A DNA stretch of 64,000 nucleotides, taken from IMG/VR virus record IMGVR_UViG_3300028393_001967; one strand, 5' to 3'. Positions 28,416 through 64,000 of the stretch are shown here, one piece after another. The notes under the pieces were generated by a model, which did no database searches, was not told the origin of the DNA, and worked only from the letters and a program-made list of their open reading frames with translations. This DNA is from a virus. The position numbers were made by a program, and so were the translations under genes. The first letter of the stretch is position 1. The number at the start of each line of letters is the position of its first letter.

Positions 28416-29024
28416 ATGCACGATTCCGCATACAAAGCAGCAAAACTCTTTTTTGATACATACTGCGCCCGTTTAGGAAATATTTCAGTAGTTGAAATTG
28501 GATCACAAAATGTAAATGGTTCTTTGAAAGATCATATTACACCAAATGTTGTTGAATATGTTGGGGTGGATTTTGCAGCAGGCAACGGCGTGGATGTTGT
28601 ATTGTCAGATCCGTTTGTATATCCTTTTGCAGATAACACATTTGATGTGTTAATAACATCGTCGTGTTTTGAACATTCTTCAATGTTTTGGTTAACATTT
28701 ATGGAATGTTTACGTATTTTAAAACCAACAGGTATAATGTATTGCAGCGCACCATCAGTTTGGCCATACCATGCTTGGCCCGTTGATTGTTGGAGATTTA
28801 ATCCTGATGCAGGCCAAGGTTTAGAAACTTGGGGACGATATAATAAAATTCCTGTAAAAATGCTAGAAACATATATCTATAATGCCAATGTAAACGAGGG
28901 AGGCTGGGTTGATTGGAATTCTGTTTTTATCAAAGATCAAGCCTACGAAAATTTACACCCATCTAGAATGCTAACCAAATTAGTTAATGATACTAGAGTT
29001 TCTTTTCCAAAAATTAATCAATGA
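28416..29024 (+). CDS. Class I SAM-dependent methyltransferase
   Basis: VEIGS, GVD, FDV..SSCFEH, RILKPTG. Confidence 0.85.
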   Translation: MHDSAYKAAKLFFDTYCARLGNISVVEIGSQNVNGSLKDHITPNVVEYVGVDFAAGNGVDVVLSDPFVYPFADNTFDVLITSSCFEHSSMFWLTFMECLRILKPTGIMYCSAPSVWPYHAWPVDCWRFNPDAGQGLETWGRYNKIPVKMLETYIYNANVNEGGWVDWNSVFIKDQAYENLHPSRMLTKLVNDTRVSFPKINQ

Positions 29025-32000
29025 ATATAAAAATTAATTTGCCTAAAATAGCAATATTTTATCATTTGGGCCAATTGGGAAATTGGGAGGAACTGTATTT
29101 AGAGCATATGAATCTTCTCGTTGCCAACGGATTGTATGATGCTTGTGAATTTATTCACATAGGCATCAATGGCAATTTACCATTACCAAAAGTTTTTAAT
29201 AAATCGAGAATTAAATATAATTCAGATCATGTGTTGGAAGCCAACACCTTAGAATCTTTGTGGAATTTTAGCCAAGAAAATCGTGATTATAAGATTTTGT
29301 TTTTTCATAGCAAGGGTGTTACACACGGTATAAATTCTCCTTTTAACGATAATGTTATTGCTTGGAGAAAATATTTAGAATATTTTAATATAGTAAACTG
29401 GAAAGATAGTGTACAATATCTCAATGAATACGATTGTACAAGTGTAGAATTGCTGGATACGTCTTACCACAACGATATTGTAATACCTGGATTATTTTAC
29501 GCAGGCAATTTTTGGTGGGCAAATAGCCAGTATATTTCTACATTAGATACAAACTTTTTATACGACAACACTAACGGTCTAGCACGGTGGCAAAGTGAGA
29601 AATGGATAGGGACTGGTAATCCCCGCGCTCATTCACAATTTAATTTTAATTGCGTAGAATATTACAATTTTAATTACCCAAAAGAATTTTATATAAAACA
29701 AGAAATGACAGATAATCAAACAATACAAACTAACTGTGAAGATAAAATTGTAGAAATACTTAATAAATTTCAAATTAATGGTTGGGGAAATAATTTAGAA
29801 AACGGCACAGATAAAGCAGACTGGCATTCTTATGATAAACTATATGGGAAATATCTTAACAATTATATAGATAAGAAAGGCACGCTACTGGAGATTGGCG
29901 TTTGGGGTGGTGGATCTTCAGTTTTATGGAGTAATTTACTACCTAATTTTGATTTTTGTTTAGTTGATATAGAAAATAAATTATCTATTAAAAATAGACA
30001 AAATTTAGATTTTACCAAAACTAGATATATTATCACTGATGCATATCACATAGAAGTAAAAAATCAAATTAAAGATTTATATCCCCAAGGATTTGATGTT
30101 ATTATTGATGACGGGCCACATACAGTGGAAAGTCAAATAAAATGTGTTGAATTATATTTAGATACGCTGACTGACAATGGTGTTTTAATTATTGAAGATA
30201 TTACAAGTACTGAAAATCTTCAACTTATTATAAACTCTATACCTAAAAATTACGATTATGTTGTAGAAGATTATAGGCACCTCAAAGGCCGATTTGATGA
30301 TTTGGCAATAGTTATTAAGAAAAAAACATTGAGCAAAAAACCTAAAATTGTAATGAATACAATGTTTAGGAACGAAGCAACTGTTATAAAAAGAATGCTC
30401 GAATCTTGCTACAAATATATAGACTATTATGTAATACAAAATAATGGTTCAACTGACGGTACCGACGAAATTGTTCGAGAATTCTTTGCTGATAAAAATA
30501 TTCCTGGTATATTATACAATGTTGAAGAGGGTTGGCAAGGATTTGGATGGAACCGAGATCATTTGATGCAGTACACACAAAATACCAATCATGGGTGTGA
30601 TTGGATCTTAAAAATGGACTGTGACGAAGTATTAGAGGTTGACGAAGACATGGATTGGACACCATTTGAAGATTTGTCAATCCATTCTTTCCATATTACT
30701 GCTATTACAGGTAGCTCAATTTATTATCGTGCTTGGATGTGGAATGCACATATGCCCTGGAGATTTAACCACGATCCCTGTCACGAAACAAGCTATTGCC
30801 CTATTGAAGGTATTGGCGAAAATTTTCAAAGATATGATTTACCTAATAAAATTAGACAAATTGGATTTCCACAAGGACAAAGTTGGAGCAACCCTACTAA
30901 ATTTATTAGCGATGCATTGATTCTTGAAGAAAAGATGATCAAGGAAAATTCTATATTAACTGACTTGTATCACTTTTGGTATATTGGCAAGAGTTATCAT
31001 GATGCTCGTCAAGGATCGTTTCCTCTAGGTAGTTCACAACAGATAGAATTTTCTAGACGTTGTATCTATTATTTTACTGAATATTTGAACACCACTCACG
31101 ATTTTAGTAATACCAAAACTGCTAACGGTATTCACGAAATGGCCTATATGGCATTGATATTTTTAAGCTCTGATCAAAAGTTTATTGGCGATATTGATAG
31201 TGCTATTGAAAATTTAATATTAAGCGAACAATTTGCGCCTGAGCGCAATGATCATTTAGTTGCGTTGGCAGAGATTTATAATCAACAACAACAATATGAT
31301 AAGATGCTAGAAATTACAACTAGATTAGTTGATCCAAATAGAAAGAATCCGTTTCCTACATACCATCTAATGATTAATTCTAACGCTTATGTTGACACTG
31401 GAAATTATGTGCAATCACTCCATGATATTGCAAAATCAAACTTACCACAAAAATTAAATCCATTTATGATTAATACACAATTAGATAAAAAATTGTTTGT
31501 AGTAGACAACTTTTATTCAAATCCAGATCAGATTAGAGAATTTGCTTTGAATGTAGAATTTAAGGAAGATATTAAATGGTACAAGGGAAAGAGATCTACG
31601 CAGCATTACCATCCACCAGGCATTGTGGAAGCATTTGAAAATATTATAGGACAAAAAATTGTTAAATTTGATCAATCTATGCCTAACGGTTGTTTTCAAA
31701 TAACCACAGCAAATGACCCACAAGTTTATCATCACGATTTACAAAAGTGGGCTGCTATGATTTATTTGACACCTAATGCTCCTATTGAAAGCGGAACAAG
31801 ATTAATGCGTTCAAAAATCAATCAAGCCGCACATATGAATGATCCAAATATCAATGATGCATTTAGTGGGGGATTTTTAGATGCTACAAAATTTGAAGTT
31901 GTGGCGGACGCAGGAAACCTGTATAATAGACTTGTTATAATGGATGCACAAAACATTCATTCAGCAGGAACTTACTTTGGACAAAACAACGACACTGGTC

Positions 32001-32029
32001 GTCTAACTCACTTATTCTTCTTTGATTAA
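29021..32029 (+). CDS. Multidomain: GT-like + methyltransferase + GT2/TPR + 2OG-Fe(II) oxygenase
   Basis: FHSKG..NFWWA; LEIGVWGGGS/DVIIDDGPH; NEA..DCDE; VVDNFY..HHD..MIYL..NRLV..HS..RL. Confidence 0.8.
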   Translation: MNIKINLPKIAIFYHLGQLGNWEELYLEHMNLLVANGLYDACEFIHIGINGNLPLPKVFNKSRIKYNSDHVLEANTLESLWNFSQENRDYKILFFHSKGVTHGINSPFNDNVIAWRKYLEYFNIVNWKDSVQYLNEYDCTSVELLDTSYHNDIVIPGLFYAGNFWWANSQYISTLDTNFLYDNTNGLARWQSEKWIGTGNPRAHSQFNFNCVEYYNFNYPKEFYIKQEMTDNQTIQTNCEDKIVEILNKFQINGWGNNLENGTDKADWHSYDKLYGKYLNNYIDKKGTLLEIGVWGGGSSVLWSNLLPNFDFCLVDIENKLSIKNRQNLDFTKTRYIITDAYHIEVKNQIKDLYPQGFDVIIDDGPHTVESQIKCVELYLDTLTDNGVLIIEDITSTENLQLIINSIPKNYDYVVEDYRHLKGRFDDLAIVIKKKTLSKKPKIVMNTMFRNEATVIKRMLESCYKYIDYYVIQNNGSTDGTDEIVREFFADKNIPGILYNVEEGWQGFGWNRDHLMQYTQNTNHGCDWILKMDCDEVLEVDEDMDWTPFEDLSIHSFHITAITGSSIYYRAWMWNAHMPWRFNHDPCHETSYCPIEGIGENFQRYDLPNKIRQIGFPQGQSWSNPTKFISDALILEEKMIKENSILTDLYHFWYIGKSYHDARQGSFPLGSSQQIEFSRRCIYYFTEYLNTTHDFSNTKTANGIHEMAYMALIFLSSDQKFIGDIDSAIENLILSEQFAPERNDHLVALAEIYNQQQQYDKMLEITTRLVDPNRKNPFPTYHLMINSNAYVDTGNYVQSLHDIAKSNLPQKLNPFMINTQLDKKLFVVDNFYSNPDQIREFALNVEFKEDIKWYKGKRSTQHYHPPGIVEAFENIIGQKIVKFDQSMPNGCFQITTANDPQVYHHDLQKWAAMIYLTPNAPIESGTRLMRSKINQAAHMNDPNINDAFSGGFLDATKFEVVADAGNLYNRLVIMDAQNIHSAGTYFGQNNDTGRLTHLFFFD

Positions 32030-39071: not shown

Positions 39072-41828
39072 ATGACCACTCGCCCAAATCTTATATCCCT
39101 GCCGCATTTAACCTTTGCTAATTCTGGCACAACTTACTTTGTTGTACAAGATTCAGGGACCGATCTTTATATTACAGTGCCTCAAGCACAAGAATTAATT
39201 TTAGGATACACACAAGTTGGTCCACAAGGAAGTCAAGGATCACAAGGATATCAAGGTGTACAGGGAACCCAGGGTAGTCAGGGATATCAAGGCGTTCAAG
39301 GAACACCAGGATCGCAAGGATCACTAGGTATACAAGGAAATCAGGGTGTTCAAGGAGCACAAGGAAGTCAAGGTATTCAAGGAGGTGCAGGATCACAGGG
39401 AAGTCAAGGTCGTCAGGGCGCTATTGGAAATCAGGGCGTTCAGGGAGATCACGGAGTTCAAGGTTCCCAAGGTTCTCTTGGTTTAGGTTATGCAGGATTA
39501 ACATCAAATACTCCAAATTTAATTAGTCTAAGTCAAAAAACATTTGTAACTAACCTAAGTTCATCAAATACTGCATTTACAGTAGGGCAATATGTAAGAG
39601 CATTTTATAGTACAGTACCAACAAATTATTTAGAAGGTATAATCACATCTTTTAGTGGAAATATTTTAATATTAGATGTTTCTATTATAGGTGGCAATGG
39701 AGGGCCGTATCCAGATGTTGGCGGGTTATGGGTATTTGCTATCACCGGATCTCCTGGTGCACGTGGTTCTCAAGGTGCGCAGGGTGTTCAAGGAATTCAA
39801 GGTGTTCAAGGATATCGAGGATCAGACGGTGTTCAAGGAGCACAAGGAGCCCAAGGTATACAAGGAGCCCAGGGATATCAAGGATATCAAGGCGTTCAAG
39901 GGGCACAAGGTATACAAGGAGCAATTGGTGCTCAGGGACTTCAGGGCGTAATAGGCGCACAAGGAAGTCAGGGCATTCAGGGATCTCGAGGCGCACAAGG
40001 TGTTAGTGGCGCTCAAGGACCTTTGGGGCCTTATCAAAGCGGCCCTCAAGGTCCTGCCGGCCGTCAAGGATCACAGGGATTTCAAGGAACACAGGGTTCA
40101 ACAGGCGCTCAAGGTGCACAGGGATTTCAAGGAGCACAAGGTGCACAGGGATTACAAGGAGCACAGGGATTTCAAGGAGCACAAGGTGCACAGGGATTAC
40201 AAGGAGCACAGGGAAGTCAAGGCGTTCAAGGAACACAAGGTTCTAGGGGATTCCAAGGAGCACAAGGTATTCAAGGAACACAAGGTTCTCAAGGCTTTCA
40301 AGGAACACAGGGTGTTCAAGGCACCCGTGGTGCACAGGGACCACAAGGTATCCAAGGCGGCGCAGGTTTTCAAGGAAGTCAAGGAATCCAAGGAAGTCAA
40401 GGTATTCAGGGCGACCAAGGCATACAGGGTGCCCAAGGCATACAGGGTGCCCAAGGGTTTCAAGGACCGTTAGGACCTTATCAAAATGGTCCGCAAGGAC
40501 CTGCTGGTTTCCAAGGACCTCAAGGATATCAAGGAAGTCAGGGTTATCAAGGAAGTCAGGGTTATCAAGGTGCTCAAGGAGCACAGGGAAAACAGGGCAG
40601 TACGGGAGCTCAAGGATCAGTTGGATATCAAGGAAGTCAGGGTGCTCAAGGGTTTCAAGGACCACAAGGATTCCAAGGTGCCCAAGGTGCCCAGGGATAT
40701 CAAGGGTTAGACGGGACACAGGGTTCCAGGGGAGTGCAAGGAGCACAGGGATTCCAAGGTACGGTGGGTGCTCAAGGAAGTCAAGGTTTTACTGGTAGTC
40801 AAGGAACTATTGGATTCCAAGGACCTCAAGGATATCAAGGAAGTCAGGGATATCAAGGAAGTCAAGGTTTTACTGGTAGTCAAGGAACTGTTGGTTTCCA
40901 AGGAAACCAAGGATATCAAGGAAGTCAGGGATATCAAGGAAGTCAAGGCGTTCAAGGAACACAGGGTATACAAGGGGCAATTGGTACTCAGGGACTTCAA
41001 GGAGCACAAGGATATCAAGGCGCCCTTGGTGTTCAAGGCTATCAAGGAGCAGTGGGTGCTCAGGGATTACAAGGAACGGCAGGTTCTCAAGGTGTTCAAG
41101 GAACACAGGGTGCTCAAGGATACCAAGGCATTCAAGGAGTTAACGGCGTAGGCTCACAAGGTGTACAAGGAACGGCAGGTGCTCAAGGTGTCCAAGGTGC
41201 TCAAGGTCGTCAAGGTGCTCAGGGTCGTCAAGGCTTTCAGGGCGCTGGCGGCGGTGCAGGTCCAATTGGTGGAACAAACGGACAAGTGTTATATAATTCC
41301 GCCGGTAGTGTTGCTGGATTTGCTTCTACGGACGGTGCTAATATGTCATTATATGGCAATTTAACTGTTCAAGGGGATATTACCGCATACCGCAGTGGCG
41401 GAACTACGGGCGTTATCTATCTTAATTCAGCTCAAGATAGATATTTGTACTATGATGGCTCCACCTATATATTACATACTGCTGGATTGAGCGTCGGCGG
41501 GGACATTACTTCTTCTGGTAATGTCACTGCGTATTCTGATGCTAGATTAAAAGATAATATTCAGGTTATTACAGACGCATTGTCTAAACTTTGTGAACTA
41601 CGAGGAGTAACTTATACCAGAATAGACAGTGGAATAAGACAAACTGGTGTAATTGCGCAGGATGTAGAAAAAGTTTTACCAGAAGCTGTTGTTAAACTTG
41701 ATGACGAAACTGGAACGTTGACTGTTGCTTACGGTAATATGATAGGACTATTGATTGAATCTATTAAAGAATTAAAAGCTGAAGTAGACGAAATTAAGAA
41801 AAATATTGGTTCAAATATACAACCATAA
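39072..41828 (+). CDS. Collagen-like tail fibre with C-terminal S74 intramolecular chaperone
   Basis: Long G-X-Q triplet tracts; YSDARLKDNI autocleavage motif, GVIAQDV, coiled-coil end. Confidence 0.9.
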   Translation: MTTRPNLISLPHLTFANSGTTYFVVQDSGTDLYITVPQAQELILGYTQVGPQGSQGSQGYQGVQGTQGSQGYQGVQGTPGSQGSLGIQGNQGVQGAQGSQGIQGGAGSQGSQGRQGAIGNQGVQGDHGVQGSQGSLGLGYAGLTSNTPNLISLSQKTFVTNLSSSNTAFTVGQYVRAFYSTVPTNYLEGIITSFSGNILILDVSIIGGNGGPYPDVGGLWVFAITGSPGARGSQGAQGVQGIQGVQGYRGSDGVQGAQGAQGIQGAQGYQGYQGVQGAQGIQGAIGAQGLQGVIGAQGSQGIQGSRGAQGVSGAQGPLGPYQSGPQGPAGRQGSQGFQGTQGSTGAQGAQGFQGAQGAQGLQGAQGFQGAQGAQGLQGAQGSQGVQGTQGSRGFQGAQGIQGTQGSQGFQGTQGVQGTRGAQGPQGIQGGAGFQGSQGIQGSQGIQGDQGIQGAQGIQGAQGFQGPLGPYQNGPQGPAGFQGPQGYQGSQGYQGSQGYQGAQGAQGKQGSTGAQGSVGYQGSQGAQGFQGPQGFQGAQGAQGYQGLDGTQGSRGVQGAQGFQGTVGAQGSQGFTGSQGTIGFQGPQGYQGSQGYQGSQGFTGSQGTVGFQGNQGYQGSQGYQGSQGVQGTQGIQGAIGTQGLQGAQGYQGALGVQGYQGAVGAQGLQGTAGSQGVQGTQGAQGYQGIQGVNGVGSQGVQGTAGAQGVQGAQGRQGAQGRQGFQGAGGGAGPIGGTNGQVLYNSAGSVAGFASTDGANMSLYGNLTVQGDITAYRSGGTTGVIYLNSAQDRYLYYDGSTYILHTAGLSVGGDITSSGNVTAYSDARLKDNIQVITDALSKLCELRGVTYTRIDSGIRQTGVIAQDVEKVLPEAVVKLDDETGTLTVAYGNMIGLLIESIKELKAEVDEIKKNIGSNIQP
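39216..41247 (+). repeat. 9-nt-period CAAGGN/CAGGGN collagen repeat (two blocks separated by ~39490-39745)
   Basis: Visible periodicity, with exact 45-nt duplication near 40120-40210. Confidence 0.9.
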
Positions 41829-53241: not shown

Positions 53242-54075
53242 ATGGATCATTACAATACCTTAGGCGTCAATAAAAATTCAAGTCCAGACGATATCAAACG
53301 TGCATATCGTAAGTTGGCTAGCCAGCATCATCCGGATAAAGGCGGGGATACCAAAAAGTTTCAAGAAGTGGAGGAAGCATATCGCACATTAAGTGATCCG
53401 GACAAGCGGGCACAATACGATAATCCTCAACCACAATTCAATGGCGGGTTTGGTGGCGGAATGCCCCCAGGCTTTGAAGATATCTTTGGACAAATGTTTG
53501 GCGGTGGCGGGCATCCTTTTGGAAATATGTTTGGGCAGAGGCCACAGCAACAGGCCAGAAATAGAATATTGAATATCCAAACTGTTATTACTTTGGAAGA
53601 AGCATTTAACGGTAAGGATATGATTGCCAATCTTCAACTACCAACTGGCCGAGATCAAGTTTTAGAAATTAAAATTCCTGCGGGCATTAGTGACGGGATG
53701 ACATTGCGACTGGCAGGTATGGGCGATGATAGTGTGCCCAATGCTCCTAGAGGTGATATACATCTAACTGTACAAGTACAACAACATCACACCTTTGGTA
53801 GACAAGGCGATGACTTAGTTCGCACAATAGACGTTAATTGTATTGATGCAATACTAGGCAAGACTGTTCAAATATCCGCCATAAACGGTGCACTATTAGA
53901 TATCAAAATTCCGCCAGGTACACAGCACGGACAAATACTTGCGGCTGCTGGTTATGGAATGCCCAAAGTAAATGATAATAGATTTAAAGGTCGTATGCTA
54001 TTAAGCATTAATATCACTATACCAACCAACTTTACAGATACGCAAAAAGAACTGTTGAAACAACTAACCATTTAA
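53242..54075 (+). CDS. DnaJ-class chaperone (CbpA-like, no zinc finger)
   Basis: J domain with HPD, G/F region, C-terminal substrate domains. Confidence 0.92.
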   Translation: MDHYNTLGVNKNSSPDDIKRAYRKLASQHHPDKGGDTKKFQEVEEAYRTLSDPDKRAQYDNPQPQFNGGFGGGMPPGFEDIFGQMFGGGGHPFGNMFGQRPQQQARNRILNIQTVITLEEAFNGKDMIANLQLPTGRDQVLEIKIPAGISDGMTLRLAGMGDDSVPNAPRGDIHLTVQVQQHHTFGRQGDDLVRTIDVNCIDAILGKTVQISAINGALLDIKIPPGTQHGQILAAAGYGMPKVNDNRFKGRMLLSINITIPTNFTDTQKELLKQLTI

Positions 54076-54083
54076 ATAAAACT

Positions 54084-54584
54084 ATGTTAAACATTGTAAA
54101 ATTTCCTGATAATATGCTTCGAGAAAAAACTGAAGAATTTGATTTTGAGAATTGTGTCTTAGATCCAGTTAAATTAGAACAGGAGCTCATAGAAACTATG
54201 TTGGCTAATGATGGGATTGGACTTGCAGCAACACAAGTTGGACTGCCTTTGCGTGTCTTTGTTATGGGACACAAGGCAACTCCTGAATTGGCACAGGCAT
54301 TTTTCAATCCAATCGTAGTAGCAACAACTGATACTATCGAAGATTTGGAAGAAGGATGTTTGAGTTTTCCCGGTATCTATGTTAATATTAAACGTCCCAC
54401 AGCAATTAAGGCTCGGTGGCAAAATAGTAAAGGTGAATGGCAAGAATCAGAATTTGACGGATATAATTGTAAATGCTTTCTTCACGAATTGGATCATTTA
54501 GAAGGCATTGTGTTTAAAGATAGGATTAGCCCCTTAAAATGGGCTATGGCAGTTAAGAAACTTAAAAATAGGAAATTTAAATAA
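54084..54584 (+). CDS. def: Peptide deformylase
   Basis: GIGLAATQ, EGCLS, HELDH. Confidence 0.95.
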   Translation: MLNIVKFPDNMLREKTEEFDFENCVLDPVKLEQELIETMLANDGIGLAATQVGLPLRVFVMGHKATPELAQAFFNPIVVATTDTIEDLEEGCLSFPGIYVNIKRPTAIKARWQNSKGEWQESEFDGYNCKCFLHELDHLEGIVFKDRISPLKWAMAVKKLKNRKFK

Positions 54585-56854
54585 TGTTGGAACCAAATAA
54601 AGATCTGGAACAAATCTTTGAAAATGCAATTAATGTAGCTGGTGTTAATAACCACGAGTACATTACACTGGAGCATTTTTTGTATAGTATGCTGAACAAT
54701 GAATCATTCACAGCTATATTAACTTCTTTTGGTGCCGATATTACTCAGCTAAAGCAAGACGTTGAATTATATATTGAAAACGAATTAGGTGACATTGTAA
54801 ATCCTGACGTAGAAAAACCTAAGAAAACTGATATACTGGATCGTATGTTGAATCGTGCGTTTACCCAAGTACTATTCAGCGGACGTCAGATTATTGAACC
54901 TGTTGATTGTTTTATCAGTATGTTTAGTGAAAAGAAAAGTCACGCAAACTTCTTTATTAACAAAGCCAACATTGATAAAGATAAGTTTATTACATTCTTA
55001 AACAAAGAATCGGCACGTGAAGAAGTTGTTGAAGAAGAAAAGAATGTTAATCCCCAAATTGCTCGAATGATTACTCAATTCTGTACTGATTTAACTGCCA
55101 AAGCTAAGAGTAAAAAAATTGACCCAGTTATTGGTCGAGATAAAGAGATTGAAGAAATTGAATTGGTATTGGCTCGCCGTACAAAAGCTAATGCAATTTT
55201 GATTGGTGATCCAGGTGTTGGTAAGACTGCTATTGCAGAAGGCCTTGCTCGCAAAATTGTAGAAAATACTGTACCTAAATTTATCCAAGAACATACTGTT
55301 TATAGTTTGGATATCAGTGCATTGTTGGCAGGCAGTAAATATCGTGGTGATTTTGAAGAACGATTGAAAGCAGTTATTGGTGGCCTTGAAAAGAAAGGCA
55401 ACTGTATTCTGTTTATTGACGAAGCACATATGATGAATGGTGCTGGTACTAGTGGCGGCGGCAGCAATGATATGGCTAATATGCTTAAATCAACATTGGG
55501 CCGCGGCAAGATCAAAGTTATTGCCAGTACAACGTGGGAAGAATATCGTAAACACTTTGAAAAAGATCGTGCATTGATGCGCCGTTTCCAACGTGTCACT
55601 ATTGACGAGCCCAATGAAGCAACTGCTGTTAAGATTATGAAAGGTCTTAAAAAGTATTACGAAAAACATCACGGTGTTAAGATTACTAATCAAGCAATCA
55701 TTGACTCAGTTAAGTACAGTGTCAAATATATGACTGATAAGAAGTTACCTGACAAGGCAATTGATTTGATTGACTGCGCCTGTGCTCGTTTTAAAGTACG
55801 TGACGAAGAAGGTGGAACAGTTGACCATGCTGAAATCTTGTTTGAGATCAGTAAGATTGCTAACATTCCATTGGAACAATTAAGCAATAAAGACAATACT
55901 AATTTAGCTAACCTAGAAAAGAATATGAAGGCCAAAGTATATGGCCAAGAAACTGCTATTGAAAGTTTGTTGGACAAGGTGTTTATTGCACAGTCTGGAT
56001 TAAAATCTTTAAACAAACCAGTTGGTAGTTTTCTATTTGTTGGCCCCACGGGTGTTGGTAAAACAGAAGCGGCTAAACAACTTGCATCTAATATGGGAAC
56101 AAAACTTGTTCGCTTTGATATGAGCGAGTTCCAAGAGAAACATAGTGTGGCCAAGTTTATCGGTGCTCCCCCAGGATATGTTGGCTTTGACGACAATGCT
56201 GGACAACTGATTACAAGTTTGCAAGAGAATCCTAACTGTGTTCTATTGTTAGACGAAGTTGAAAAGGCTCACCCAGATGTGCTAACTGTTATGTTGCAAT
56301 TGATGGATAATGGATTTATAACTGGTAGTAATGGTAAGAAAGCAGATGGTCGCAATGCTATTATCATTATGACAAGTAATTTGGGTGCAGCTGATGCTGA
56401 AAAAAATGCAGTGGGTTTTGGTAGTTTGGAACGTGACAGTGATCCCAAAGATGCTGTTAGCAAGTTCTTTGCTCCAGAGTTTCGCAATCGGTTAGATGGT
56501 GTTATCCGCTTTGGCAAATTAGACAAGACCACAATGATTCTTATTGTTAAGAAGTTTATCGGTGAACTCAATGCACTAGTTAAGGATAAAAACATTCACG
56601 TTAAACCTACTAACGATGCATTAGAGTACCTAGTTAATAAAGGCTTTGATAGTAAAATGGGCGCACGTCCATTACAACGTACTATTGATGACATGATTAA
56701 GAAACCATTAAGCAAAGAGATTTTATTTGGTAAGTTAACTAATGGCGGGGTAGTTGAAATTACACTTGATGATAACAAATTAAAGTTGAACTTTATTGAT
56801 CCCCTGCCAGTAGTAAAGGTTAAAAATGACATACAACAAGCAAGCAACATCTAA
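54584..56854 (+). CDS. clpA: ATP-dependent Clp protease ATPase subunit ClpA
   Basis: Clp-[25 protein letters not shown], no M-domain, VGF ClpP-docking loop. Confidence 0.92.
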
Positions 56855-58001: not shown

Positions 58002-58379
58002 ATGTTTTTAAGAGAATTCTTTGGCAAGGGTGTTGACATCAACAAAACGATGGCAAAAAACAAGGACGACAATAATATGAATAATGACCTATTCTGGTTT
58101 ATTATTGACCACGATAAATTGCATAAGGATTTCTTCCACCCAATTGCAACAAAGATTCATAAATCACATAAAAATAAAACTTTGGACAAAGAAGAAATGA
58201 CCAAAGAATTTATGCCAATGGTTGAAAAAGGCTGCAAAGAATTTTATCATCAAAAAAAATTACCTGGACATTTTGAAAATAACTTTGACAAAGAACTAAT
58301 GAAAGAAATGTGTGAACGATTATACGACCACTATCGAGAAGATATCACCAGTGGCAAACATTATAAGATAGGGGCATAA
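58002..58379 (+). CDS. Hypothetical late protein (MFLREF N-terminus)
   Basis: AATAAATA and AAGGA upstream. Confidence 0.75.
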   Translation: MFLREFFGKGVDINKTMAKNKDDNNMNNDLFWFIIDHDKLHKDFFHPIATKIHKSHKNKTLDKEEMTKEFMPMVEKGCKEFYHQKKLPGHFENNFDKELMKEMCERLYDHYREDITSGKHYKIGA

Positions 58380-58380
58380 A

Positions 58381-59355
58381 ATGAGAATAACAGAACTATT
58401 AAGTTACCTCACGGAAGGCGGAAATGTATTTGCAGGTAAGACTACTAGTATCAAACGTGAAGATATTGAGCCCACGCTGGCTGCATACTTTACAGAATTA
58501 AAACATATATTTCCAAAGAAGGCTGGCATATTTAACAGCCAACATTTTATTCCACTAGGGTCAGTAGGTAAGAAAGATGTTAGCGGAGACATTGACTTAG
58601 GTGTTAGTGCTAGTGAGTTACTAGACAAAGAAATGAGTGATGCGAGTATTGCAGCCTGGGGAATCGATCCAGCAGGTGTTGCAGCAGAAGCAGAAGCATT
58701 ACAAAAACGTGCCCGTAGCAGCACACCAGAACAAAGTCGTATGAAAGCGTTCTTAAAATTGTTAACATTGCATATCAACAGTCACGCACCTAGTTTATAT
58801 TGTGATGAAAAGAAAGTTACTGATGGCAACATCTTTGGACTGTTTCCACAAATTGATGCCAAGGGACAACACGTCGGAAGTGGCGTACAAATTGATTGGA
58901 TGATTGGTAATTTAGATTGGTTAAAGTTTAGTTATCATTCCGCAGCATATCCAAAAGAATCAAATATCAAGGGCCTACATAGAACACAATTAATGTTGGC
59001 TGCATTTCAAGTAGCAGGACTATCTTTTAATCACGTTAATGGAGTCAAGGATAAATCCACTGGCGAAATCATTGCACACGATCCAGACAGTGCATTAGCG
59101 GTATTAGGTCAGCGACTAGGATTTAAGATTACCCAAGCAGATGCAGAAGATTATTACAAACTACATAATCTATTTAAAGCCAAAATGAAGCCTGAAGAAT
59201 ACAGCACATTGTTAAACATTTACTTCAAAATCCTAGACAGCACTCGCGCAGACATTCCAGACGATATGCAAGATGAATGGCGCAAACGTAAAGATGCATT
59301 GGGACTAACGGGCAAGTTCCTCCCAGACAATTCAGCATTAAAGGTGAGACAATAA
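58381..59355 (+). CDS. Pol-beta-superfamily nucleotidyltransferase, putative internal head protein
   Basis: LGSVGKKDVSGDIDL and VQIDW; N-terminal MRITELL..LTE-GG. Confidence 0.7.
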   Translation: MRITELLSYLTEGGNVFAGKTTSIKREDIEPTLAAYFTELKHIFPKKAGIFNSQHFIPLGSVGKKDVSGDIDLGVSASELLDKEMSDASIAAWGIDPAGVAAEAEALQKRARSSTPEQSRMKAFLKLLTLHINSHAPSLYCDEKKVTDGNIFGLFPQIDAKGQHVGSGVQIDWMIGNLDWLKFSYHSAAYPKESNIKGLHRTQLMLAAFQVAGLSFNHVNGVKDKSTGEIIAHDPDSALAVLGQRLGFKITQADAEDYYKLHNLFKAKMKPEEYSTLLNIYFKILDSTRADIPDDMQDEWRKRKDALGLTGKFLPDNSALKVRQ

Positions 59356-61862
59356 TGAGCGGCGTAGCAGGAGCAGATAGAGTAAAAAGTCGTCAAGACT
59401 TTAAACAATTCTTGGCATCGTATCAACACCTACTATCAAAGTTTCCAGGCTTTGTTAGTATGACTCCAAGTGGAAGTTATAATAGCAATCCTAACAAACA
59501 AGATTTTGGTGACATTGACCTAGTTGTTCATATTCAAAGCGACAAAGACAAAGCGACCATCAAAAAAGAACTTCAGGCATTTTTTACTAAGATGCCTGAA
59601 ACTGTTATTGTACCTTTTAGCAGTGCCAAACACGCAGGTAAAAGAACATACAATGCAGGTGAATTGGTCAGCGTTCGTTATCACGATGATGCATTAGGGT
59701 ATAGCGCACAGGTTGATAACATTGTCGCATTAGATGCAGCAGAAGCAAGTTTCAAACAAAGTTTTTTAGATATGCCTGCTGAAGAACAGGGATTGATTTT
59801 AGGACTGACCAAGATTGCCACTATTGAAACAGACCCTGCCATATTGTTTCAAAAGTTGGGTATTAAAATTAAAGAGCCTTTGTCGCAAGATCAAGAATAC
59901 GAATTTAATCTAAGTGGAGTTGAATTACAACTGCGCAGGGTAACATATGAACCAGGTACATTCAAACAGGCCAATAGAGAAGTACTGTGGTCAAGTAAAA
60001 ACTTTAATGACGTTCAAAAATTATTATTTCAGTATGATTTAACTGCTGGCTTTGACGATTTACTACAACAATGCAAGCGCAACATTCGTAATCCCCGCAG
60101 CGGTGAACGTATGAAGGGTGTATTTGCCAGTATGATATCTGTTAAGAGTGGCGAAGTAGGAACCGCCAAAGGTGCTGGTAAAGAAGCAGCATTGGCCAAG
60201 ATACAACAGACATTTAAGGAAAATAGATCCATATTTAGAAGCCTAATGGAAAACGGCAACAAGAAAATTGTATTTGCATTTGGACGTTTTCAACCTCCTA
60301 CAATTGGGCACGAATTGTTGATCACTAGTGTCAAGCACATAGCAGAACAACAAGGCGCAGATCATGCAATTTATGTGTCAAAAACACAAGATCACAAGTC
60401 AAATCCCCTGTCAGTTGAACAAAAAATTGCATATTTGCGCAAGATGTTTCCTGGTGTTAATTTCGTAGCCTGTGATGCCACTGTTAGAACTCCCATTGAA
60501 GCTGCTAAGGTTTTGAATGGCAAGTATCAAGAGTTGATCATGGTAGCTGGTTCAGATCGTGTAGCAAATTTTGAAAAATTGTTAAATGATTACAACGGTA
60601 AAGAATATCAGTACGCCATGCTTAGAGTGGTATCAGCAGGCGAGCGTGATCCAGATTCGGACGATGTTAGTGGAATGAGTGGAACCAAAATGAGAGCCGC
60701 AGCGGTAGCAGGTGACTTGCAAACATTTATGCAAGGTTTGCCAGGAACTATAAGCGAGAAAGATGCTATGAATTTAATGGAACTGATCAAACAGGGTTTA
60801 CAAAAACCTGTCAAGGCAAAGAAAGGTGTGGCGGAAGGTCAACAGGATGATCCAGAAGATTATCGAGCACATTTAATAAAGACCCTGCCGGCAATGATGA
60901 ACTATTTTGCCAAGACAGGTAAGGGTTGGAGTCCTAGCAAAGAACAAATGTTAGCCGCAGTTGATACTGCATATGAAGTTATGAAACATACTAGTGATGT
61001 TCAACAAGCAGGCAAAGCATTAATGGACGAACTGAATACTCTACACAGAATGAGTCAAGGTCAGCAAGGTGTGGCGGAAGGCTTATCCAAACGTGACCAA
61101 CAGGATGTGGCTGCTATTCGGGCCACTATAGAAAGATTACAAGCACAACTCAAACAACCCAATGCCGACAAGGCTGCTATACAACAAAGTATTGCCCACG
61201 AGCAGAAGCGACTAGCATTGTATAAGGAAGGTGTGGCGGAGGGCTCCGAAGAAGATAGTTACTCAAACAAGTTTGTTCAAAGTCAGATTGACTATTATAA
61301 GAAACATCTCTTATCAGGAAATACTGGTGACCAGCATCGTATTCGTGGTTCGTTAATGAATTACGAAAGAATTAAAAATCAACGAATCAAAAATAACACT
61401 TGGCAAGAGCAAGGTGTGGCGGAAGGCGAAGCAGACTACGGTGCTGACTATCAAGACAAAGTAAAACGATTGAGTCAGATGGCTAAACAAGGCGAGCGCA
61501 AAACTGTTTGGGATCCTATCAAGCGTGTGTACAAGACTGTTCCTGTCAACCCACCCAAAGAGCAAGGCGTAAATGAAAAGATGATGCCTGCAAGTACCTT
61601 TGCAGGATCTAAGAAAAACAAACTTGGCCCAGCAGGACAATTAAAAGGTTCTATGAAGCGCCCAGCACGAGCAGGTGACTTAGTTGGCGGCAGTGCTGAA
61701 GAAAGTTTTGATGGTGGAAGTTATGCTGCCAAGAAGCCAGGCTACAGCGGAGAAGCAAACTATACTGCGCAGCCTAACTGGCGTGGACAAAATATCGGCG
61801 AAGATGTAGATGTTGCTATGGCCAATGCTATTGCTCGACTAATTGAAAGCCAATTAAAATGA
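59355..61862 (+). CDS. Polyprotein: pol-beta NTase + HxGH-type nucleotidyltransferase + GVAEG-delimited modules
   Basis: SGSY....DFGDIDL, QVDN; FGRFQPPTIGH, GSDR, MSGTKMR; GVAEG x4, GVNE x1. Confidence 0.8.
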   Translation: MSGVAGADRVKSRQDFKQFLASYQHLLSKFPGFVSMTPSGSYNSNPNKQDFGDIDLVVHIQSDKDKATIKKELQAFFTKMPETVIVPFSSAKHAGKRTYNAGELVSVRYHDDALGYSAQVDNIVALDAAEASFKQSFLDMPAEEQGLILGLTKIATIETDPAILFQKLGIKIKEPLSQDQEYEFNLSGVELQLRRVTYEPGTFKQANREVLWSSKNFNDVQKLLFQYDLTAGFDDLLQQCKRNIRNPRSGERMKGVFASMISVKSGEVGTAKGAGKEAALAKIQQTFKENRSIFRSLMENGNKKIVFAFGRFQPPTIGHELLITSVKHIAEQQGADHAIYVSKTQDHKSNPLSVEQKIAYLRKMFPGVNFVACDATVRTPIEAAKVLNGKYQELIMVAGSDRVANFEKLLNDYNGKEYQYAMLRVVSAGERDPDSDDVSGMSGTKMRAAAVAGDLQTFMQGLPGTISEKDAMNLMELIKQGLQKPVKAKKGVAEGQQDDPEDYRAHLIKTLPAMMNYFAKTGKGWSPSKEQMLAAVDTAYEVMKHTSDVQQAGKALMDELNTLHRMSQGQQGVAEGLSKRDQQDVAAIRATIERLQAQLKQPNADKAAIQQSIAHEQKRLALYKEGVAEGSEEDSYSNKFVQSQIDYYKKHLLSGNTGDQHRIRGSLMNYERIKNQRIKNNTWQEQGVAEGEADYGADYQDKVKRLSQMAKQGERKTVWDPIKRVYKTVPVNPPKEQGVNEKMMPASTFAGSKKNKLGPAGQLKGSMKRPARAGDLVGGSAEESFDGGSYAAKKPGYSGEANYTAQPNWRGQNIGEDVDVAMANAIARLIESQLK

Positions 61863-62119
61863 AGCAGTACAGGATCACTACGGCCAACATCACTCCAAAA
61901 AGTGATGACGATTGCTATTTGTCTCCGGAAGATCCCATACAAGAACTTATCGCTGCCGCTGCAATGAATGGATTAGGTGCTAACGAACGACTAGCAGAAT
62001 ATAGGGCAAAACAGAGACAGCCAGTAATAGGCAGCAACAAAGGGCAACTACAACGTGAACAGGGTATTAGGCCTGGCACCGACGAATGGTTTCAACTTTG
62101 GTTTGGTAAGAATAAATAA
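61859..62119 (+). CDS. Hypothetical protein
   Basis: GIRPGTDEWFQLWF; ATGA overlap. Confidence 0.75.
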   Translation: MKQYRITTANITPKSDDDCYLSPEDPIQELIAAAAMNGLGANERLAEYRAKQRQPVIGSNKGQLQREQGIRPGTDEWFQLWFGKNK

Positions 62120-62136
62120 CACAACTAGGAAATATT

Positions 62137-62514
62137 ATGAGATCAAAAGAATTTATTCGCGAATATGCTACTGGAGGAAAAATAAATCCAGAAACTAAAG
62201 CAGTAATTAGCAATACGCACACATTTCCTGATCAAAATATGTATCACGGCAGCGGTTATTTGCATAGTAGAATGCTACTGTCAGTGGCACCAGCGGGTGC
62301 CGGTGATACTCCCGATGCTTATCTTCCCGTGGATAACTTTTCCAGCGGTGATCCAACTGCAAGCCCATATCATCCAATGGAAGAAGAAATGATAGATCGT
62401 GCAGCCAAAAATATTGGAGATAAGAGCAAGAGAACTTGGGGAAATAGAAGAAGTGAAGAACCCAAAGGTACTCACAAAGTTAGCCCAGTGTCAAATTGGA
62501 ATAAAGCAAAATGA
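62137..62514 (+). CDS. Putative internal head protein (MRSKEFIRE leader)
   Basis: Leader resembles T4 capsid-targeting sequence; paralog of next gene. Confidence 0.65.
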   Translation: MRSKEFIREYATGGKINPETKAVISNTHTFPDQNMYHGSGYLHSRMLLSVAPAGAGDTPDAYLPVDNFSSGDPTASPYHPMEEEMIDRAAKNIGDKSKRTWGNRRSEEPKGTHKVSPVSNWNKAK

Positions 62515-62882
62515 GAATACGCGAATTAGTTGAAGGAAGAACTGGCAGCATTCAAGACGATGCTGCCAGTGCACTGCCTGCGACTTATACGATTCCTGAA
62601 CTTCGAAATCAAGATCCATATAAACAATACAGATTTGGTGTTGCTATTGCACAGGCCAAAGGTCGATCAGAACAAACTGAAAAGTTTGAACCCACAAGTC
62701 CCTGGGGTGAGAATTTAATTGTAGTATCATATGAAAACGGTGTTGACAAATTTATCGACGATGCATTGAAATTAGTAGGTTTATCGTCGGGAGATAAGAA
62801 ACTTATTAGCACTACAAAAAGTGAAGAAACTAAAGATGTGGGAACACTAAGCCCTATTTCAAATTGGATGAAAAAGAAATGA
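62511..62882 (+). CDS. Putative internal head protein (MRIRELVE leader)
   Basis: Shares SEE.K.....SP.SNW C-terminus with 62137. Confidence 0.65.
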   Translation: MRIRELVEGRTGSIQDDAASALPATYTIPELRNQDPYKQYRFGVAIAQAKGRSEQTEKFEPTSPWGENLIVVSYENGVDKFIDDALKLVGLSSGDKKLISTTKSEETKDVGTLSPISNWMKKK

Positions 62883-64000
62883 ACAAAGAATTTAAAGCCA
62901 AAAAATTTAAAGACGCAACAGTCTACACATTAGAAAGTGCCACTAGTGGCGGAACTAGTTCAGGTAACATTGCTAGTGTAAGTAGCCCAATGGGCGGTGT
63001 ACGCAAGCGTGGTGATAATCTTATTGCACAAGAAGCAAATAAAGACACTGTTCCCTCAACTACTCCTAGAAACTTTGTTGCTAAAAATGCCAAGATGGGT
63101 GGTGCTGGTGCGCACAAGGATAAAAAGAAGGCCGAAAAGCAAGGTGATGTCAAACACAAGAATAAACAGTTTGAATTGGCAGAAGCAGGCTATGGCCGCA
63201 ATCGCGATTATAGTCACGGATTTGGTAGTCCCACTGCTCCTAAACTAGGTGGTCGGGAATATTATGGTCAGGGTGCAGCGGACGATGAAAGCAATATGTT
63301 GTATATCTATGTAGACGGTAGACTAAAGCAAAAGATGGTTTCCAATCAAAACGAAAGACAGGCCCGTGCACAGGGTTTCAGAGATAGTCAAGACGAAGCA
63401 CTAAAATTACACGGCATTATCCGCAGCAAGTTTGATCCTAAAAAGTTTGTACAGAATCAAGGCGGCAAATGGGTACAAGTATTTCCCTACGGTGAAGAGC
63501 AAGGTGTGGCGGAGGGCTATGATACTGTTACAGGTGTTGTTGGATCTAGTGACTGGGACATGAAAGGTTGGAAAATTAAGTGGGGTGAGACTGATCGATC
63601 TAGTGGTGACTACGAAAAAATGTATCAAGGGATCGTTAATAAAGATGGTATACATTCCGAAATGAGTCGTTCGGGGTTTCATTTTGTTGTTTTTACTCCT
63701 ATTAACACAGGTAATACAAAAGTTGAAAATAAAAGGCAGGATATTGAGGTAGGTCTGGACCACAGGGTTGAAGTCTTTGATCCTAATAAAAACGACTGGG
63801 TAATGTTAAGTATTCAGGCAAAACCAGCCGACACTTCAAAAGACTATGGGTCGTCAAGGCCGAACAAATCTGGGTGGCAAAAGCCTAGCAAATATGGGTG
63901 GACAGACTATAATCCTGAAGAAAGTGTGGCGGAAGGTGAATACAATCCTGATACTTTCGTAGGCAAAAAAGGAACATACAAAGGATATGGCATAACACAG
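62879..64000 (+). CDS. Modular GVAEG-containing protein, 3'-truncated (not in ORF track)
   Basis: Hand translation MNKEFKAKK... open for 374 codons to window end; QGVAEG and SVAEG. Confidence 0.85.
   Translation, partial: MNKEFKAKKFKDATVYTLESATSGGTSSGNIASVSSPMGGVRKRGDNLIAQEANKDTVPSTTPRNFVAKNAKMGGAGAHKDKKKAEKQGDVKHKNKQFELAEAGYGRNRDYSHGFGSPTAPKLGGREYYGQGAADDESNMLYIYVDGRLKQKMVSNQNERQARAQGFRDSQDEALKLHGIIRSKFDPKKFVQNQGGKWVQVFPYGEEQGVAEGYDTVTGVVGSSDWDMKGWKIKWGETDRSSGDYEKMYQGIVNKDGIHSEMSRSGFHFVVFTPINTGNTKVENKRQDIEVGLDHRVEVFDPNKNDWVMLSIQAKPADTSKDYGSSRPNKSGWQKPSKYGWTDYNPEESVAEGEYNPDTFVGKKGTYKGYGITQ

Follow-up and report, generated by a model that had tools for sequence, protein, structure and literature searches.

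A short coding junction between unrelated protein modules in uncultured T4-type jumbo phages: a site of module exchange and a putative prohead protease site

Linker-joined modules in two genes of the window

We analyzed 64,000 nucleotides (nt) of the virus record IMGVR_UViG_3300028393_001967 (the window; positions are 1-based on the plus strand), near the end of which two open reading frames (ORFs), ORF1 and ORF2, carry a short repeat, here called the linker, between protein modules. The sequence GGTGTGGCGGARGG occurs exactly at 60825, 61068, 61230, 61413, and 63503, and a sixth copy at 63923 has A as its first base but is otherwise the same; all six are on the plus strand. By chance 0.28 copies would be expected, and none of 100 shuffles of the window gave six or more. 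No minus-strand copy was found in the window, and the linker thus has no antisense partner there. Distances from copy to copy are 243, 162, 183, 153, and 420 nt, each divisible by 3, and every copy is in frame within ORF1 or ORF2, where it encodes (K/Q/E)(G/S)VAEG.

The modules between the linkers are mutually unrelated (the lowest pairwise E-value was 0.09), and the linker is the sole stretch they have in common. We consider the degenerate QGVNE at 61566 a true decayed junction because blocks of homology to other contigs end or begin there. The linkers use GTG-GCG, although GTG makes up 14.4% of valine codons and GCG 7.1% of alanine codons in the genes of the window; the only GTG codons in the window part of ORF2, at 63506 and 63926, are both inside linkers. 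That phage tRNAs serve these rare codons was considered and rejected, as the window holds no tRNA gene. A first-pass annotation, made from the letters of the window, had described six copies in two genes, spacing in multiples of 3, the degenerate copy, unrelated intervening modules, and this codon pattern, and each of these descriptions is borne out by the exact-copy scan, the homology-block ends, the pairwise comparison, and the codon count.

ORF1 combines in one polypeptide a pol-beta-type nucleotidyltransferase-like N-terminal part, a cytidylyltransferase domain at about residues 300–490, and four unrelated cassettes; its C-terminal tail is common to six other contigs (L001, L002, L007, L012, L013, and L078). 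In a single-sequence AlphaFold model of residues 476–835, modules 1 and 2 are helical and confident (predicted local distance difference test 75–92), confidence falls below 50 exactly at linkers 1–3, and the remainder of the model is poor. In ORF2, the first ~100 amino acids (aa) are conserved in relatives and are followed by a variable cassette array. The 140-aa cassette of this array has no relative among the fetched loci described below and no Pfam or Atlas match. The sequence after linker 6 is 100% identical to L050 across 65 nt, beginning exactly at the linker. L147, an 8.9-kb contig from a different assembly, shares 6218 identical nt with the window and adds two ORF2 linkers past the window end, at window-equivalent positions 64094 and 64241. 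Table 1 lists the features of this region.

Table 1. Features of the linker-bearing region; an arrow marks a predicted cut.
Feature	Position	Strand	Description
125-aa ORF	58002..58379	+	leader-type N-terminus MFLREFF...; 57–67% conserved in syntenic relatives
324-aa ORF	58381..59355	+	nucleotidyltransferase-like; leader MRITELLSYLTE↓GG
ORF1	59355..61862	+	835 aa; enzyme parts, four linker-bounded cassettes, conserved tail
Linker 1	60822..60839	+	KGVAEG; between enzyme part and cassette 1
Cassette 1	60837..61079	+	81 aa, helical
Linker 2	61065..61082	+	QGVAEG
Cassette 2	61080..61241	+	54 aa, helical
Linker 3	61227..61244	+	EGVAEG, GAG form
Cassette 3	61242..61424	+	61 aa
Linker 4	61410..61427	+	QGVAEG
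Cassette 4	61425..61577	+	51 aa
Decayed linker	61563..61580	+	QGVNEK; same form kept in relative L013; borders conserved tail
Conserved C-terminal tail	61578..61859	+	94 aa; basic DUF7230-like motif
125-aa ORF	62137..62514	+	leader MRSKEFIRE, which closely resembles the targeting sequence of T4 internal proteins (PMC9026906)
123-aa ORF	62511..62882	+	paralogue of ORF 62137..62514; leader MRIRELVE↓G
ORF2	62879..64000	+	cut by the window end; full 771 aa in L147, ending at window-equivalent 65194
Linker 5	63500..63517	+	QGVAEG, GAG form
ORF2 cassette	63515..63934	+	140 aa
Linker 6	63920..63937	+	ESVAEG, first base A

Linker conservation and module exchange in related phages

The 17-mer CAAGGTGTGGCGGARGG is present in at least 120 IMG/VR contigs; unless stated otherwise, the counts that follow come from 134 fetched loci. 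The consensus, CAA GGT GTG GCG GAA GGC, reads QGVAE↓G, and the GAA form is in the majority. Across 308 unique contexts, conservation is sharply limited to ~18–20 nt with random flanks, and no inverted repeat, palindrome, or conserved flanking structure was found. All but one of 356 DNA hits are in frame within a long ORF (the lone exception lies at a contig end), and among these hits the linker was not seen outside coding frame 0. Large carrier records hold 1–7 copies, grouped in few genes on one strand, and 49 of the 75 copies other than the search seeds are exact.

The linker is carried by uncultured T4-type jumbo phages that make up a deep clade and belong to the Rak2/PA5oct-like capsid lineage. 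One 97%-complete carrier has a capsid protein that shares 65–70% identity with its counterparts in PA5oct, GAP32, and a Vibrio phage of 349 kb. Among cultured phages, PA5oct and Vibrio phage 2.275.O are nearest by capsid, and neither contains a linker at two or fewer mismatches. The window reads like part of a large phage, here an uncultured one from freshwater: almost all its long ORFs share one strand, and its gene products include a ClpA/B-type unfoldase, DnaJ, a peptide deformylase, a collagen-like tail fibre, and an RNA ligase. Three syntenic relatives (L007, L012, and L013) are 72–73% DNA-identical to the window from DnaJ to ClpB; their contigs, of ~100–128 kb, have completeness ratings of ~30%, pointing to genomes of around 350 kb.

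The linker is constrained as DNA, beyond what its peptide requires. The 257 GVAEG peptides are encoded with GTG in 243 cases, GCG in 243, and GGT in 252, against a background of 20% GTG and 9% GCG. Carrier DNA polymerases are only 55–70% identical to one another (median 64%), which means that silent sites outside the linker are saturated. The leader peptide MRAxEFIxE, likewise conserved in these loci (49 unique instances), served as an internal control: at silent positions it matches background codon use, and thus the nucleotide constraint is specific to the linker. The comparison of synonymous sites with codon usage, which the first-pass annotation had recommended, therefore separates a constrained linker from a freely varying leader.

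The cassettes of ORF1 recur in other contexts. Cassette 1 is 73–78% DNA-identical to cassettes in L084 and L035, whose neighbours differ; cassette 2 is 93% identical to L038; cassette 3 is 96.5–97.5% identical to L003, L004, and L005; and cassette 4 is 78% identical to L072, the match stopping at the decayed linker. For cassettes 2 and 3, ungapped identity to the matched contigs is ~25–30% immediately beyond both linkers, and the ClpB-like gene of L004 and L005 is only 64–68% identical to that of the window. Module pairs of at least 85% identity between different loci number 94, of which 49 come from duplicate contigs; the non-duplicate pairs have random flanks on both sides in 44 of 45 cases. 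A search of a 5.8-billion-protein collection placed cassette 3 in 13 proteins, seven of them (129–984 aa) at 98–100% identity and six more at 71–77%, lying anywhere from residue 18 to residue 635 and flanked by linkers every time. Its partners vary: cytidylyltransferase, GP88, DUF6321, DUF5872, and ART-PolyVal with a methyltransferase. In L078 the cytidylyltransferase is joined straight to the conserved tail at the point of linker 1 and the array is absent, and the syntenic relatives of the window carry other cassette arrays. Two more assemblies, made from two samples other than that of the window, repeat its exact arrangement without a mismatch (0 in 6218 nt).

Together, these comparisons give good support to the conclusion that the linker acts as a DNA-level junction at which modules are gained, lost, and moved. 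They also agree with two expectations of the first-pass annotation, that relatives would show module gain and loss with breakpoints at the repeat and that single modules would recur in other genes between the same repeats. Module order is not fixed, and the silent sites of the linker do not vary freely. Among the neighbours of linker genes in 120 loci, we found no recurrent recombinase or homing endonuclease.

The linker peptide as a putative prohead protease site

A shared reading frame alone is no proof of a peptide function, because cassettes need one frame to be compatible. We therefore looked at 155 in-frame copies with 2–4 changes in the 18-mer. In these decayed linkers, P3 is always one of V, M, L, and I (100%), and Glu holds P1 in 98.7%; Gly at P4 and Ala at P2 are retained in 84% and 85%, and Gln at P5 and Gly at P1′ in just 56% and 54%. 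The T4 protease gp21 cleaves after L/I-X-E, and the phiKZ and SPN3US enzymes after S/A-X-E and A-X-E (PMC9026906, PMC10052503). As read from sequence, the decayed linkers match the gp21 rule, and VAE is a putative site at which cleavage by a T4-type prohead protease is plausible.

A gp21-type S77 protease (PF03420) scores above cut-off in 6 of 10 carrier records (G002, G003, G005, G006, G008, and G010) and is found in two of the three syntenic relatives; the window itself excludes the head module. Carrier capsid proteins show LAE↓(S/N) where T4 gp23 has LTE↓A, which we infer to be its counterpart, from an alignment that includes an indel at that point. A scan of 131 carrier ORFs against Pfam gave no peptidase family, and thus no built-in metallopeptidase. 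A site-specific Lon-like protease beside the genes was also considered and rejected: the 756-aa "ATP-dependent protease" upstream is a ClpA/B-type unfoldase that has no protease domain.

Linker genes are also associated with N-terminal leaders that resemble the T4 capsid-targeting sequence (CTS). In the fetched loci, 39% of linker ORFs with a complete 5′ end have a CTS-like leader compared to 10.7% of other ORFs (odds ratio 5.4, p = 9e-11), and in some linker ORFs the leader passes directly into QGVAEG. The strict leader pattern is found in the window on only four real ORFs, all of which flank the two linker genes, and the leader of ORF2 has a capsid-protein-like form. In the 97%-complete carrier G002, the leader is present on all four linker genes and on a 76-aa ORF adjoining the S77 gene; the PA5oct homologue of this head-module ORF has the same start and is annotated as detected in virions by mass spectrometry. 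PA5oct virions contain 93 proteins, enzymes included (PMC7318152). The leader family is not expanded in PA5oct, where gp150 is the sole carrier.

ORF2 has a predicted TLE↓S cut, beyond which 10 of 15 residues agree with the mature N-terminus of the major capsid protein of related phages (62879–63013 vs L138, L139, and L140). This segment also appears in several further leader-bearing ORFs of the fetched loci and may represent a shared contact with the prohead core.

The first-pass annotation had proposed a dual-purpose element, part recombination site and part protease site. The breakpoint comparisons sustain the recombination half; the protease half stays at the level of plausibility, an unproven but, on the sequence patterns above, the most likely reading of the peptide. 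We propose that an 18-nt junction carries a DNA code and a peptide code in the cargo proteins of T4-type jumbo phages, and we hold this proposal, as a whole, to be somewhat more probable than its negation. In these proteins the in-frame junction joins unrelated modules of 50–300 aa. As DNA, the comparisons show, identical junctions serve as crossover points for insertion, deletion, and replacement of single modules and for their movement from gene to gene and from phage to diverged phage; because the frame is common to all junctions, every product stays open. The mechanism is most likely homologous or short-homology recombination during mixed infection, with excised circles of module plus linker as a possible vehicle. 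Junction identity would be kept by gene-level selection, because only cassettes with intact junctions keep spreading. As peptide, [V/I/L/M]-x-Glu followed by a small residue is the pattern that gp21-type (S77) prohead proteases recognize: the leader would draw the chain into the prohead, and the chain would be cut at each junction to give separate small proteins that travel with the DNA. A bolder version, which we regard as possible but tentative, is that module plus linker excises as a small circle, through recombination between two linkers, and re-enters any linker of any co-infecting phage with the frame preserved, so that the whole clade shares a pool of hundreds of small head-delivered effectors, freed by the protease, with the linker maintained by selection at the level of the cassette.

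Competing explanations, known systems, and neighbouring genes

Several observations weigh against the two-code proposal, and some of them favour specific alternatives. Eighteen nucleotides is short for homologous recombination, selection for "swappability" is supported by argument only, and the near-invariant silent T of GGT is not obviously explained by gene-level selection. Neither DNA nor protein of the cassette regions has a match in 50,697 phage records, so no cultured relative with the linker was found among them. The T4 late-promoter octamer TATAAATA is depleted rather than enriched in the window (2 matches vs 6.7 expected) and was rejected as the late signal; late transcription signals probably differ from those of T4. 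Linker genes in 120 loci mostly adjoin replication genes rather than head genes, ORF1 is an enzyme fusion that has no CTS-like leader, and leader-like N-termini are also present on dCMP-deaminase-like, HAD-like, and cytidylyltransferase ORFs, which would be odd capsid cargo. These last three points suit a model in which the linker is a recombination junction and nothing else, GVAEG being a harmless flexible translation and the products uncut multi-domain (polyvalent) proteins of the cytoplasm or virion; the single frame, demanded by cassette compatibility anyway, suits it as well. We nonetheless consider this model unlikely, since a neutral spacer would not be expected to keep a hydrophobic P3 and a P1 Glu in its decayed copies while the neighbouring positions drift, nor to be so strongly associated with CTS-like leaders. 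The leaders or linkers on metabolic enzymes could point to processing by another protease in another place, for example a cytoplasmic phage or host glutamyl endopeptidase acting in the style of RNA-virus polyproteins, with no packaging involved. The [VMLI]-x-E pattern needs merely a Glu-specific protease, and a PF03420 search gave no S77 match in the 99%-complete carrier G001. We judge this improbable: no second protease candidate was found, the nearby unfoldase being of the ClpA/B type described above, and carriers have an S77 protease as well as a head-module protein that begins with this leader.

The nearly invariant silent positions, the rare codons, and a leader control that shows the constraint not to be generic would also be expected if the linker had a direct function in RNA or DNA, such as a ribosome pause, a two-tetrad G-quadruplex, or a site for a regulator or nuclease, with the breakpoints as a by-product. 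The motif does fit (GG-N1-3)x4, but the quadruplex GG-TGT-GG-C-GG-AA-GG was rejected because GG tracts are no better conserved than loops in the 155 decayed copies, where the last GG is the most variable site. In addition, the majority GAA form weakens Shine-Dalgarno-like pairing, the window has neither an antisense partner nor tRNA genes, the flanks are devoid of structure, and the motif is confined to coding frame 0. Such a function is, in our estimation, very improbable as the primary explanation. Finally, as all carriers are metagenome assemblies, assemblers might have joined unrelated sequences at a short repeat and produced false mosaics. The linker is shorter than the k-mers usually used last in assembly. 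We rejected assembly chimeras because the arrangement recurs identically in other assemblies, as noted above for the window; several other arrays likewise agree exactly between contigs of different samples, long frames stay open through all junctions, and we give the artefact explanation almost no weight.

Of the known systems, the closest to the two-code proposal on the peptide side are the T4 internal proteins IPI–III and Alt (PMC9026906, PMC3012670), in which diverse payloads follow a conserved leader of the type MKTYQEFIAE (here MRSKEFIRE, MRAxEFIxE, and similar), with a Glu cut after hydrophobic-x-Glu (predicted here) in T4-type phages that have an S77 protease. Unlike those proteins, the payloads here are chained in one frame with a repeated internal site that is conserved in DNA; there is no sequence homology between the two, and cutting and packaging are here predictions from sequence. 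The inner-body and ejection proteins of phiKZ, 201phi2-1, and SPN3US are also cut repeatedly after x-x-Glu, in heads that contain many internal proteins (PMC9026906, PMC10052503), but the cuts in phiKZ-like phages mostly remove propeptides, at sites that are neither DNA-conserved nor tied to module exchange. On the DNA side, the PeSL shuffling cassettes of T4-type phages (PMC2839356, PMC4122927) likewise have a short conserved motif that flanks variable segments and is an exchange point between unrelated sequences, with excised mini-circles as a plausible vehicle, and the presence of such a motif at breakpoints of insertions, deletions, and replacements is a PeSL feature that we see here. PeSLs are, however, intergenic units of promoter and terminator that move whole genes, whereas the 18 nt described here are coding, keep one frame, have no promoter or stem-loop, and move protein modules inside genes.

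Polyvalent proteins (PMC5512222) also place several unrelated domains on one phage polypeptide and show rapid mosaicism, and carrier proteins hold ART-PolyVal, ParB_N, GNAT, LysM, methyltransferase, and peptidoglycan-binding and -cleaving domains. The work on polyvalent proteins describes no repeated linker or DNA-conserved junction and proposes processing by a built-in metallopeptidase (PMC5512222); the carrier ORFs gave no metallopeptidase, and most of the modules described here fall outside known families. With integrons the linkers share arrays of unrelated cassettes bounded by a common site and single cassettes in new contexts. The term "integron-like", which the first-pass annotation had used, does not apply in its strict sense: neither a recombinase nor a structured att site accompanies the linkers (there is no integrase, attI, or structured attC), and translation of the in-frame cassettes gives a single protein. 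In the literature library searched, we found no paper that places the linker peptide in a phage context. If the two-code proposal is correct, one short sequence would be read as DNA by the recombination machinery and as peptide by a protease, giving an exon-shuffling-like mode of protein evolution in a virus that has no introns. It would account for the turnover, in large phages, of an extensive repertoire of small delivered proteins; these would likely be counter-defence or take-over factors, most of them of no known family. Linker-bounded segments would then be ready-made functional units, marking modules for discovery, and nature would supply a design rule by which T4-type heads could be loaded with several proteins.

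Other features of the region touch on these genes. The start of ORF1 overlaps the stop of the leader-bearing ORF at 58381–59355 (TAATG), with a Shine-Dalgarno-like GGTGAG upstream, and in L013 and L007 the 324-aa ORF and ORF1 are a single ORF of 1146–1286 aa; judged from sequence, window 58381–61862 against L013:7007–10447 and L007:6392–10252 is a split/fusion polymorphism. The paralogues at 62137–62882 have similar leaders and similar C-termini (SP[VI]SNW..K) with divergent middles. A basic motif, F-x-A-K/S-x-x-K-x-G-x-A-G (DUF7230 / phrog_1359-like), lies at 61590–61680 and 63065–63160; it recurs in the ORF1 tail, the N-terminal part of ORF2, and many carrier proteins. Two ORFs that closely follow the window end (L147:7412–8805), one dCMP-deaminase-like and one HAD-like, have leader-like N-termini too; either the heads of these phages carry metabolic enzymes, or the leader has a broader role. 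The cargo-like genes are immediately preceded by a chaperone and protein-quality cluster (53242–56854, 72–73% DNA identity in syntenic relatives) of DnaJ (53242–54075), peptide deformylase (54084–54584), and the 756-aa ClpA/B-type double AAA+ unfoldase (54584–56854). Farther away, a 1002-aa ORF at 29021–32029 has methyltransferase-like and glycosyltransferase-like parts and a C-terminal "minor coat protein" domain (phrog_1644), and a 918-aa collagen-repeat tail-fibre protein at 39072–41828 yields several spurious ORFs in other frames.

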